Shown: positions 33,138-36,032 of the stretch, piece after piece | How the letters are laid out: the number at the start of each line of letters is the position of its first letter | Numbering within the stretch: the first letter of the stretch is position 1 | Origin: a virus | Taxonomy: Duplodnaviria > Caudoviricetes | Virus record (IMG/VR): IMGVR_UViG_3300029258_001507 | Location: 801 to 64,800 of that record | DNA: 64,000 nucleotides | Reading direction: 5' to 3' (one strand) | Notes under the pieces: model-generated | Seen by the model: the letters and a program-made list of their open reading frames with translations, nothing else | The model's database searches: none | What the model was told of the DNA's origin: nothing | Made by a program: the position numbers and the translations under genes

Positions 33138-34188
33138 CCTGCAATTCCTCTCCGTCTCCCCAGACGTTTCCACTTGCCGCACGACCAACACAACCCTGCA
33201 ATCCCTCTCCCTCTCCCCACACGTTTTCACTTTCTAGCGCAACACTCGCCAAGTACACGTAGCTTTTCCTGCAATCACTCTCACCTTACCCAAAGGTTTC
33301 ACGCCACCGACACGGCATCAGCAGCCCCCCCTGCAATTCCTCTCCGTCTCCCCACACGTTTTCACTCTCCGGCCCACCAGCAGCCATTGACGGACGCATT
33401 CCTGCCTGCAATCACTCTCCCTCTCCCAACACGTTTTCACTCCGGCAGAATCCGCCTTGTACACAACCGCCTCTGGCCTGCAATCACTCTCCGTCTCCCC
33501 AGACGTTTTCACGTCGCCTAACTCGGTCCTGCAATTCCTCTCACTTTACCCAAAGGTTTCACGCCACCGACACGGCATCAGCAGCCCCCCCTGCAATCAC
33601 TCTCCGTCTCCCCAGACGTTTTCACGCACGCTTTCTCGTGTGTAGGTGCGACCAGCAGGACCTGCAATTCCTCTCCGTCTCCCCAGACGTTTTCACAAGT
33701 GCGACGAAGCGCCAACGATCGCAAGCAAGCCGACCTGCAATTCCTCTCCGTCTCCCCAGACGTTTTTTCACCGAAGCTGCAATGAGCAGCGAGTCAAGAC
33801 GACTGCCCCTGCAATCCCTCTCCGTCTCCCCAGACGTTTCCACGTTTTTCGGAAAGGACTCCTGCAATTTCTCTCCGTCTCCCCAGACGTTTTCACTTGC
33901 CATTAGTAGGTCTGTCCGATGTTCGACCACTTTGCCTGCAATCACTCTCCCTCTCACAACACGTTTTCACCCGAAAGCGTGTTCTCCCCAGTGGAGTTTT
34001 TCCGGGCCTGCAATCCCTCTCCCTCTCCCCACGCGTTTTCACGTCCTTGTGTGCCGTCTTCCGGACGATCGTACTCACCCTGCAATCCCTCTCCCTCTCC
34101 CCACACGTTTTCACACATCGCATCCTTTACTCGAAGGCAGGATTCTTTCCAGCCTGCAATCCCTCTCCCTCTCCCCACACGTTTTCAC
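33138..34188 (-). CRISPR. CRISPR array, 16 repeats and 15 spacers; 36-nt repeat GTGAAAACGTGTGGGGAGAGGGAGAGGGATTGCAGG
   Basis: Repeats start on + at 33138, 33195, 33268, 33330, 33405, 33477, 33528, 33590, 33661, 33734, 33808, 33861, 33935, 34007, 34079, 34153; spacers 15-39 nt; orientation inferred from the leader and adjacent gene. Confidence 0.97.
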
Positions 34189-34385
34189 AGCAGCCCTCGC
34201 AACCCCTTACCCCACGGCCTTTTGCGTGGCCGTTTTCGAGAGGTCGCGTCGAGCCGCCCCGTTTGCGCGTTTCTTTCGCCCATTCGCTTTGCTCCGATCG
34301 CCCCAATCCTTGTTGCCGTCAGCCGTTGCGACTTTGCGAGCGGTCCCGGGGTTTTTCGCGCCACCGGACCCCTCGCGTTTGCGCC
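34189..34385 (-). promoter_or_regulatory. Putative CRISPR leader overlapping the 3' end of the effector ORF
   Basis: Inverted repeat GCGAGGGGTCCGG...AAAAACCCCGGGACCGCTCGCA (34335-34377) plus a proximal GACCTCTCGAAAA motif, resembling type I-C/I-G-style leader motifs. Confidence 0.55.
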
Positions 34386-35799
34386 GCTTCCGACGCGGCG
34401 ATTCGTACACTAATTCGTGCCGATGACAGACCGCCTTCAATCGCGTGTCCACCTGGTGCCACGGCCACGATCCGCCCTTGCGACCAGCCCCCGCCGTACA
34501 GAGCAACCGTGTCTTCTCCACGCTTCCCGACGGCGAACGAAAGACGAGTGTCCCCACGCCGTGCCGCTCCATCTGCTGAATTACCTCGCGAACAATCCGA
34601 CCGTTGTATTGCTGCTGGTACCTAGCCAGAATGTTTTTCTTGCTGTAAAAACCCCTCATTGCCGTCTGACGCCCGTGCCCTTGCCGGGCCGTGCCCCCGT
34701 GCCGGTACGAGGCGTGGAAGGTTGCCTTCCGCTCGGCCGTCTGCCGACGAAAGACACCCACCAGCCGGTCGCTACCCTTGCCGCCCAGCCACCAGGACCG
34801 GCCGTTGATCCGCAATCGCCACCCCCGTTTCCGCCCTGGTACCAAGACGGCCACCTTGTTCGGGTCGGCCTTGATCGGTTCGAGTTTCTCTTGCTTGTAG
34901 GATACCTCCACGTCGAACATGCCGTTGCGCCAGACGAGATTCGACCCGCAGAATTTCCACTCGCCCGAGTGGCATTTTTCGAGCATGTTGCGAATCTTCG
35001 CGTCATGCCGTCCGCCAGTCTTGAGCGTCACTACCCATGGCGTGGAACGAAATACCTCCTTGCCTGCCTTGGTCGTCGTCGGTACGCGATCGACACGAAT
35101 CAAGGCCCGCCAACGTGATTCTTCCGCGTCCGGTGGGATCAGCGTGCAATTATCGCGATCGATCGGGATCGGTTGCGGCTTGTGGCATTGAGAGAATAGC
35201 CCATACCCCGCCAGCATCACGTGCCATTCCCTGAATCCAGTCCACTGGTTCCATTGCCCAGGCCGGAAGGCGACTTGATGTGTTTTCAGGTTGCTGAACA
35301 TCCGATTCAGCGCCAACACCACCACTCGTTTGTTGAGTAGCGGTATTGCCCCACTGACCTCGTGATAGATCGCGTTGCTACATGCTTTCGGGTACGGAAG
35401 GACCGGGCACTTTGGCCGGTCGGCATGGAGTTTTTTCGGTTTCGTTGGTCGCTTGCCACGGGTTCCCTTGGGCGATTTCTTCCAGGCCGCAGCGTCTTTT
35501 TCGTATTGCCGCGTGTCGGCCACGAACTTCTGCGCGACCGGCTTAACCTCGCGATCCCACGCCAGTATCTCGTCGACCCAGTCCATCACCAACTGCACGT
35601 TGCCCACTTTGCGGTGCCAGCTATACCAGGCGAACATGGCCACGTTCTTAAGCTGCTGCACGGCCACGGCAATCGGTTCCATCGCCTCGCGAAACGCCTT
35701 CGGGCTTTCACCATCTACCGCCTGGATGCCGACCGGTTGCACGCGGATCGCGCCGACATACTCTTTCTCTTCGTGCTTCGGTTTCTTCTTGGCCATCAT
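34207..35799 (-). CDS. Cas12f/TnpB-family protein, predicted nuclease-dead and C-terminally truncated
   Basis: DPNKVAVLVPG (RuvC-I, D>V), GGTARQGHGR, N..I.R.VI....RHGVGTLVFR (RuvC-II, E>R), WPWHQV..RL; no Zn finger or RuvC-III; 18 bp from the array. Confidence 0.85.
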   Translation of the reverse strand: MMAKKKPKHEEKEYVGAIRVQPVGIQAVDGESPKAFREAMEPIAVAVQQLKNVAMFAWYSWHRKVGNVQLVMDWVDEILAWDREVKPVAQKFVADTRQYEKDAAAWKKSPKGTRGKRPTKPKKLHADRPKCPVLPYPKACSNAIYHEVSGAIPLLNKRVVVLALNRMFSNLKTHQVAFRPGQWNQWTGFREWHVMLAGYGLFSQCHKPQPIPIDRDNCTLIPPDAEESRWRALIRVDRVPTTTKAGKEVFRSTPWVVTLKTGGRHDAKIRNMLEKCHSGEWKFCGSNLVWRNGMFDVEVSYKQEKLEPIKADPNKVAVLVPGRKRGWRLRINGRSWWLGGKGSDRLVGVFRRQTAERKATFHASYRHGGTARQGHGRQTAMRGFYSKKNILARYQQQYNGRIVREVIQQMERHGVGTLVFRSPSGSVEKTRLLCTAGAGRKGGSWPWHQVDTRLKAVCHRHELVYESPRRKRRKREGSGGAKNPGTARKVATADGNKDWGDRSKANGRKKRANGAARRDLSKTATQKAVG

Positions 35800-35813
35800 T
35801 ATCTTTCGTTACT

Positions 35814-35936
35814 GAAGGGGATGCCGGCCGGGCCGCCTTGTGAACGACCCGACCGGCGGAGAGTAACTCTGGCGAGTGCTACACGGCTCGTTGCGTCCGT
35901 AGCTATTCTCGCCATGAGGCGTGCAGGACGCCTCCC
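35814..35936 (-). ncRNA. Putative Cas12f-type tracrRNA
   Basis: Hairpin GAGGCGU-CCUGC-ACGCCUC whose loop complements the repeat 3' end GCAGG; GGCGAG/CUCGCC stem; 12-bp G-U-containing hairpin; AUCCCCUUC partial anti-repeat. Confidence 0.7.
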
Positions 35937-35963
35937 ATGCCCTACTGGCATGTCTCCCTGTAA

Positions 35964-36032
35964 GCCCCGCCGCCGGACTCGAACCGGCTTGCCCGGGTAA
36001 TCCATCCCTAAGGCATGCACCATGCAGCGGGT
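35964..36032 (-). ncRNA. tRNA-like structure, non-canonical
   Basis: T-arm GCCGG-TTCGAGT-CCGGC; acceptor ACCCGCT/GGCGGGG; irregular D and anticodon arms; no CCA. Confidence 0.6.

Follow-up and report, generated by a model that had tools for sequence, protein, structure and literature searches.

A phage-borne, array-linked Cas12f derivative with lost RuvC catalytic positions and a predicted tracrRNA of its own

We analysed 64,000 nucleotides of a tailed-phage genome (Caudoviricetes; positions 801 to 64,800 of IMG/VR record IMGVR_UViG_3300029258_001507), hereafter the window, and found on its minus strand a compact CRISPR locus whose effector is a derivative of the type V-F protein Cas12f in which all three RuvC catalytic positions are lost and the zinc (Zn) finger (TNB) is absent. 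The gene for this nuclease-dead Cas12f (dCas12f)-like protein is preceded by a well-supported predicted trans-activating CRISPR RNA (tracrRNA) and followed by a co-oriented array (Table 1). Array-linked dead Cas12f has already been mentioned in print; what is new here is a phage-borne, tracrRNA-equipped example with a defined anatomy. We consider it moderately probable that the locus is a minimal type V-F-derived module for guided DNA binding without cutting. A first-pass annotation of the window had described a dead Cas12f-like system and proposed that it silences genes; our analysis confirms what was observed and supports part of the interpretation.

The effector and its family

The assignment to Cas12f rests on sequence and on fold. 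A single-sequence phmmer search of the PDB returned Cas12f1 enzymes (9i8y, E = 4.7e-5; 9nzq, E = 1.1e-4), and a profile built from 125 members of the effector family matched AsCas12f (E = 2.4e-39), SpCas12f1 (1.1e-33) and OsCas12f (1.3e-30), with more distant matches to the sigmaE-linked dCas12f (9n9c, E = 1.2e-17) and to Un1Cas12f (E = 2.7e-11). The AlphaFold (AF2) model built on the family alignment has a mean predicted local distance difference test score (pLDDT) of 87.7 and a predicted template modelling score (pTM) of 0.79, and its best Foldseek match is AsCas12f (8j12_A, E = 1.9e-17), so that the structure check proposed in the first pass returned a Cas12f fold. The 16 top-ranked Foldseek matches are all Cas12f or dCas12f, and TnpB, Cas12k, Cas12m and CasX lie far behind (TnpB-side 8iaz, E = 4.5e-6, and 8h1j, E = 2.9e-5; Cas12m 8hhl, E = 1.2e-5, at rank 33). 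Searches of Pfam, NCBIfam and PHROGs gave no match for the 530-aa protein.

In both the phmmer and the profile alignments to Cas12f, the RuvC-I Asp column is occupied by Val320 and the RuvC-II Glu column by Arg421, and the Cas12f1 alignments given in the first-pass annotation thus prove essentially right. Homology to Cas12f runs to about residue 466 (position ~372 of AsCas12f, chain 422-432) and ends before the Zn finger and RuvC-III, whose absence past this point had also been noticed. Residues 478-530 form a basic tail that is modelled as disordered (pLDDT <50). Among the 11 closest homologues, 2-3 share the motif at the end of this tail, which is thus more than translated leader, and the earlier suggestion of mere leader read-through is weakened. 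Within the part of the gene that encodes the tail, a stretch of ~40 nt (34334-34375) behaves differently from the rest in three of four public sequencing runs (X5, X6 and X7): other contigs match the window only there and continue into unlike sequence, and depth is slightly raised. This stretch may be a short element common to relatives, or a repeat.

The loss of the catalytic residues is a property of a large family. An exhaustive HMMER search of 1.84 billion cluster representatives (clusters at 50% identity) found at least 243 clusters, 243 at E<=1e-3, 186 at E<=1e-10 and 47 at E<=1e-30. In an alignment of the best 150 of the 243 representatives (median protein size ~440 aa), to which all column and tail counts given here refer, no protein has Asp in the RuvC-I column, which holds Arg in 50, Val in 15, Ser in 14, His in 10 and other residues in the remainder; Glu is found in the RuvC-II column in 10 of the 150. 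A CxxC...CxxC, Zn-finger-like tail is present in a single protein, and the tails past the last conserved strand have a median of 22 residues. Elsewhere, nearly invariant columns are numerous. Since the Asp is missing throughout and the tails are short, yet so many columns are held nearly constant, the alignment indicates that inactivation and truncation go back to the ancestor of the family and are maintained under selection, and that the gene is not decaying. Homologues share the inactivation, as the first-pass annotation had asked to be checked, and the pseudogene reading that it had named as a way of being wrong is contradicted.

Pattern-plus-tblastn scans recovered 11 related loci, all 11 of which are confirmed and lie on IMG/VR viral contigs (7.6-51 kb), and one further relative on a short metagenome contig. 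Three pairs of the IMG/VR loci are near-identical, leaving 8 distinct loci besides the window, or 9 with it. Head and packaging genes accompany the effector on some of these contigs (terminase, portal and head protein in L140; major head protein in L136). Co-oriented arrays of 2 to 25 repeats of ~36 nt adjoin the gene in 8/8 related loci scanned. The layout varies: L138 (9464-12165) has the tracrRNA, a 4-repeat array, the gene, a 12-repeat array and then the gene for a small neighbouring protein considered below, so that arrays flank the effector gene on both sides, and in L141 (9869-13721) the gene for the small protein stands between the effector gene and a 25-repeat array.

The pattern-plus-tblastn scans found no effector relative in a collection of one genome per species, and a six-frame search with hidden Markov models (HMMs) of 400 genomes from the phylum of the metagenomic bin that contains the phage contig gave weak TnpB-like matches only (best E = 2.3e-13). 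GenBank phages and PLSDB plasmids yielded distant transposase-like matches only, BFVD distant TnpB-like viral proteins only, and no Cas12f relative was found elsewhere in the bin.

The predicted tracrRNA and the array

Cas12f guide RNAs are held together by two-site pairing between CRISPR RNA (crRNA) and tracrRNA, one site being a pseudoknot between a tracrRNA loop and the end of the repeat. In the window, the minus strand of the 272-nt region upstream of the effector gene folds at -118.5 kcal/mol (z -3.65; 0/200 shuffles as stable), and the plus strand has a z of -2.06; no sigma-70-like promoter was found in this region. Comparison of upstream non-coding DNA revealed an element common to five loci, consisting of a hairpin, then a two-tier stem and then a short tail. 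A covariance model built from five loci (the window, L137, L140, L141/L145 and L142/L143) matches upstream of the gene in 6/6 distinct loci with upstream DNA, the sixth being the held-out L138/L139 (70.9 bits, E = 7e-16). The window contains a single match, and the only other one in the 255 kb searched is at chance level (L135, 12.7 bits, E = 0.73). As a negative control, 80 unrelated viral loci (676 kb), namely those returned by a degenerate repeat-end pattern search of IMG/VR, gave 0 matches. One weak match among 150 other genomes of the phylum was rejected, the adjacent open reading frame (ORF) being unrelated to the effector family.

The secondary structure is supported by covariation. Paired cells amount to 95.2%, against 83.0% in shuffles and 31-46% when the partners are slid, and 8 pairs have changed on both sides, a number reached by 0/500 shuffles; these figures come from an alignment of 7 distinct rows that was fitted to the model. 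The case for a tracrRNA is strongest in the predicted intermolecular match of each RNA to its own repeat. In 6/6 loci the loop of the first hairpin complements the last 5-6 nt of the locus's own repeat, at the pseudoknot site, and the tail past stem 2 complements a further 6-9 nt (repeat nt 20-29 in five loci and 13-21 in one). When repeats are reassigned to RNAs, 1 of the 720 possible assignments reaches the observed total of complementarity, and it is the true one. We regard the tracrRNA predicted from these comparisons as well supported, which upholds the candidate put forward in the first pass.

The anti-repeat emerged from the cross-locus comparison after duplex energies had failed. By duplex energy the upstream region is not distinct from background (mean -27.9, sd (standard deviation) 4.4 kcal/mol), a measure made uninformative by the high background that the purine-rich repeat gives. 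The presence of an exact complement of the repeat's last 6-8 bases near each gene was likewise uninformative, and a short degenerate repeat-end pattern found single chance matches only in IMG/VR.

The effector ORF, the stop codon of which ends at 34207, is separated by 18 nt from the first repeat, which starts at 34188, so the coordinates of the gene and its 16 co-oriented repeats are confirmed as first annotated. A 24-nt repeat core has 14 matches at <=3 mismatches, compared with 0 in 100 shuffles, and the two segments predicted to pair with the tracrRNA (repeat nt 22-26 and the last 8 nt) are kept in 16/16 repeats. Two main forms of the repeat occur, distinguished by two positions; the pair of changes in one form jointly gives a 5-bp internal hairpin, and in the other no hairpin is possible.

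Two spacers, 9 and 13, have the same sequence, and a diverged repeat comes after each of them, pointing to a ~100-nt duplication with a 260-nt spacing. The duplicated unit can be delimited as 99 nt present twice (33268-33365 and 33528-33625; 94% identity), made up of the diverged repeat, the shared 26-nt spacer and the first part of the following repeat. Spacer duplications of like kind also occur in L140 and L141. Together, the duplications in these three arrays suggest that growth has proceeded by recombination rather than by Cas1-Cas2. The arrays also look static and inherited, because the three near-identical phage pairs, although from different samples, carry identical arrays within each pair, because contigs from 4/4 public runs that cover array pieces and the gene show 0 letters differing from the window, and because six-frame searches found neither Cas1 nor Cas2 in the whole bin. 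The four runs belong to four studies of sediment and seawater, and the comparison was made by contigs, so that rare variants may escape it.

Table 1. Features of the locus in the window; tracrRNA sub-coordinates were obtained by counting along the covariance-model alignment
Feature	Position	Strand	Description
Neighbour gene, candidate partner	32368..32949	-	193 aa from an internal Met; downstream of the array
CRISPR array	33138..34188	-	16 repeats (36 nt each) separated by 15 spacers (15-39 nt); same orientation as the dCas12f-like gene
dCas12f-like effector gene	34207..35799	-	530 aa; Cas12f WED/REC/RuvC fold; RuvC-I Asp to Val320, RuvC-II Glu to Arg421
Intergenic region upstream of ORF	35800..36071	-	272 nt; tracrRNA core, extra 5' hairpin and strong 3' hairpin
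tracrRNA core	35851..35935	-	Covariance model R1, 79.1 bits, E = 5.4e-18; predicted, core only
tracrRNA stem-loop 1	35934-35929 with 35921-35916; loop 35928-35922	-	Loop complements the repeat's last 6 nt
tracrRNA stem 2, two-tier	Outer arms 35913-35908 and 35876-35871	-	From the covariance-model alignment
tracrRNA anti-repeat	35864-35858	-	Complements repeat nt 21-26
T-arm-like motif ('tRNA mimic')	35964..36032	-	Not supported as part of the system

The first-pass annotation had counted a tRNA-like element among the parts of the system, which finds no support: ARAGORN predicts 0 tRNAs there, Rfam gives no match, and the T-arm-like piece is absent upstream of the tracrRNA in 5 other loci. Look-alikes of 24 nt of this piece in 3 other genomes are not tRNA genes by ARAGORN and were set aside.

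Phage context and neighbouring genes

PHROGs matches on the window include the large terminase, portal, head morphogenesis protein, protease, tape measure and tail fibre, and those around the locus an Erf-like annealing protein, an exonuclease, NinG/Rap, two helicases and a ParB-like protein; the module sits within the phage's replication and recombination block, and nearly all genes of the window are on the same strand. The window makes up almost all of a 64,472-bp contig, without a terminal repeat, in a 2.6-Mb bin of 141 contigs that is 70% complete.

The first-pass statement that cas1, cas2, cas4, transposase and sigma-factor genes are missing nearby is borne out for Cas1, Cas2 and sigma factors. 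Cas1 and Cas2 were not found in the bin, as given above, and Sigma70_r2 has no match on the phage contig (C11), its matches in the bin lying solely on C3, C65, C94 and C50. The annotated neighbours are phage replication and recombination genes; Cas4, transposase families and the Tn7-like tnsB/tnsC/tniQ genes that are linked to Cas12k in type V-K CAST were not searched for specifically.

A recurrent neighbour is the gene for the 193-aa protein downstream of the array. Its homologues adjoin the dCas12f gene or the array in L136, L137, L138 and L141, hence in 5/9 distinct loci including the window, and the other neighbours differ between these loci; the ~190-aa protein is missing in the remaining 4/9, and a profile search places 7 proteins in its family. 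In the model (pLDDT 81.0), the N-terminal domain is all-helical (residues 10-105, pLDDT >94) and the C-terminal part is a coiled coil. Pfam returned sub-threshold coiled-coil matches only, and searches with the whole protein by Foldseek against the PDB, by VIA-align wide and in the Atlas returned just coiled-coil likeness. Prediction of a complex between dCas12f residues 1-477 and the 193-aa protein scored 0.00, which speaks neither for nor against binding. It is possible that this protein is a partner of the system.

Directly after it, at 30856-32337 (-), lies a gene for a 493-aa protein with no Pfam or PHROG match. Inspection by eye finds a P-loop-like motif at its start and a coiled-coil middle that is long and acidic; an SMC- or AAA-like ATPase is suggested by these features. 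Further away the phage also codes for an N6/N4 DNA methylase (21453-22322, -) and a DUF5131 protein (15669-16568, -).

Possible functions and relation to known systems

An effector that keeps the guide- and DNA-binding parts of Cas12f, comes with its own tracrRNA and guides and cannot cut is most simply read as a guided DNA binder, for which Cas12m and TldR are precedents, as is dCas12f-sigmaE, where such binding serves activation. The module is laid out along the minus strand as predicted tracrRNA gene, dCas12f gene and 16-repeat array, usually followed by the small helical protein. On this reading the array transcript would be processed to crRNAs, which would pair with the tracrRNA and be taken up by the effector, and this, by analogy with Cas12f, a homodimer on one guide RNA, would probably act as a dimer. 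The loaded complex would bind DNA that matches a spacer and is flanked by a protospacer-adjacent motif (PAM), forming an R-loop without cutting, and the bound locus would be blocked for transcription or replication, a natural form of multiplexed CRISPR interference (CRISPRi). With static arrays and no adaptation genes found, the guides look like a fixed, inherited programme, which would probably be aimed at host genes or rival mobile elements. Repression, and not the activation brought about by dCas12f-sigmaE, is the probable output.

Several results weigh against guided silencing. We found no protospacers above chance in the bin itself, and anchored matches to the phage itself are no better than those of shuffled spacers. 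GenBank phages hold no target for the spacers of the window, L141 or L138 arrays, the 400 genomes of the bin's phylum hold none either (best per-genome E = 0.002), nor do the related phage loci, and two spacer 22-mers have no match in IMG/VR. With no target found for any spacer, silencing is argued from analogy. The bin is moreover unsafe as a host assignment, since the GC (guanine plus cytosine) fraction of its contigs spans 0.33 to 0.66 and it is 70% complete. Finally, the anti-repeat of the window is just 6-7 bp long.

The dead effector might instead be more than a simple roadblock and serve as a guided platform for another activity. It would recruit the helical coiled-coil neighbour, or the phage's recombination or replication proteins, with activation, recombination, control of replication or exclusion of rivals as the outcome. 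The recurrence of the 193-aa homologue beside gene or array in 5/9 distinct loci, its position between the two in L141 and the place of the module inside the replication and recombination block are consistent with this, and there are precedents in Cas12k, which recruits a transposase, and in dCas12f, which recruits sigmaE; that other dead type V proteins act through partners is described in PMC13472631 and PMC10691335. The candidate partner, however, is missing in 4/9 loci, has a small family (7 proteins by profile search) and no recognisable domain or fold, and its adjacency may be module synteny alone. We judge a platform role rather unlikely, if still a serious candidate.

A broader proposal is that the family forms a distinct class of virus-encoded RNA-guided regulators with up to 25 fixed guides, in which effector, tracrRNA and partner do more than block RNA polymerase. 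Such regulators would switch loci of the host or of rival elements on or off, or steer phage replication and recombination, and would be a viral counterpart of the sigmaE-coupled dCas12f, multiplexed by a true CRISPR array. This is a speculative view that we hold to be unlikely.

Cas12f is a homodimer (PMC12255294), and a dead subunit could thus be dominant negative; phages are also described as encoding guide-RNA mimics (10.64898/2026.06.03.729762). The locus could on these grounds be an anti-CRISPR or decoy, whose dead subunit or RNAs poison or soak up a type V-F system of the host through dead heterodimers or capture of the host tracrRNA. A decoy, however, would not need a tracrRNA matched to its own repeat at each locus and up to 25 different spacers, and the searches described above turned up no Cas12f relative elsewhere in the bin and weak TnpB-like matches only in the 400 genomes of the phylum, making this explanation very unlikely.

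The two remaining explanations are poorly compatible with the family data. That the effector still cuts nucleic acid, by a rearranged site or with a nuclease acting in trans, draws on the rearranged, possibly active RuvC sites of other TnpB and Cas12 clades (PMC10691335) and on the 10 of the best 150 proteins with Glu in the RuvC-II column; it is highly improbable in a family with no RuvC-I Asp, in which 149 of the same 150 physically lack both the RuvC-III segment and the Zn finger and the catalytic positions have been taken by many different residues (Arg, Val, Ser, His, Trp and others), unlike a relocated site. A functionless, decaying remnant of a Cas12f system would account for the missing catalytic residues, the truncation, the irregular spacer lengths and the diverged repeats, and is next to untenable given an intact reading frame, a confidently modelled fold, hundreds of clusters with nearly invariant columns, tracrRNAs and repeats that co-vary across loci and a sequence identical in 4/4 public runs.

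Natural RNA-guided DNA binders that do not cut (Cas12k, Cas12m, TldR and dCas12f-sigmaE) are a young field, to which the window locus adds an unusually complete example, with a compact effector, a defined tracrRNA and a multi-guide array, borne by a phage and belonging to a family of hundreds of clusters. If guided silencing is indeed its function, phages run multiplexed CRISPRi on their hosts or rivals, which would bear on how they take over cells and on conflict between mobile elements. The locus would also offer a small, naturally dead and naturally multiplexed scaffold for gene-control tools, for which the covariation between tracrRNA and repeat gives a direct guide RNA design.

Among characterised systems, the locus most resembles type V-F Cas12f1. 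It shares with AsCas12f, SpCas12f1 and OsCas12f (8j12, 7wju, 8dzj, 9i8y, 9nzq) the fold and the domain order up to mid-RuvC, and with Cas12f1 loci an adjoining co-oriented array of 36-nt repeats and a tracrRNA with two sites of pairing to the repeat's 3' part. It differs in that the RuvC catalytic positions are lost and the Zn finger (TNB) and RuvC-III deleted, and in being phage-borne, with static arrays and no adaptation genes (Cas1 and Cas2 having been searched for).

Closest in description is a distinct cluster of putative dead Cas12f near CRISPR arrays reported by Hoffmann et al. (Nature 2026, PMC13472631), with C-terminal truncations, a covarying upstream RNA and a proposed role as repressor. 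That account is bioinformatic only, and its example is a Chitinophagaceae metagenome-assembled genome with an efflux-promoter target. The dead, truncated Cas12f, the array and the covarying upstream RNA are all found here; the likeness is one of description, and the locus may belong to the same clade. In the evolutionary order inferred by Altae-Tran et al. (PNAS 2023, PMC10691335), inactivation of Cas12f and loss of RuvC-III went together and preceded the loss of the array. The first-pass remark that this is not a described system thus needs qualifying, since both papers mention array-linked dead Cas12f; it holds in that, in their accessible text, neither tests such a system or gives it a phage location. 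We found no experimental account of a phage-borne, array-linked dead Cas12f in the literature, on which the figures and supplements of these two papers may bear.

The dCas12f-sigmaE systems of Bacteroidota are RNA-guided transcription activators that use chimeric single guides, have no tracrRNA and have lost the array (PMC13472631). Their effector (9n9c) is, like that of the window, a nuclease-dead and C-terminally truncated Cas12f derivative, and there it binds DNA under RNA guidance. The window system differs in its greater distance (profile E = 1.2e-17, versus 2.4e-39 for AsCas12f), in its array and separate tracrRNA and in having no rpoE on the phage contig, whereas an operonic rpoE, encoding an ECF sigma factor with a C-terminal extension, marks the activator systems.

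TldR proteins are TnpB-like nuclease-dead repressors, some of them carried by temperate phages (10.1101/2023.11.30.569447, PMC13418256). Phage encoding and nuclease death are common to both, RNA-guided gene regulation being a feature of TldR. TldR, however, descends directly from TnpB and uses one omega-RNA-like guide, located beside the 3' end of its gene or overlapping it, with no array, tracrRNA or multiplexing; because the closest solved relatives of the window effector are Cas12f and not TnpB, and because an array and a tracrRNA are present, it is not of the TldR type. Cas12m (type V-M) achieves interference by binding DNA without cutting (PMC11013384) and is a distant fold match only. 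Cas12r (10.64898/2026.04.20.719267) is a compact phage type V system that has no adaptation genes and directs its spacers against rival mobile elements; unlike the window system, it is described as needing an active RuvC and using no tracrRNA.

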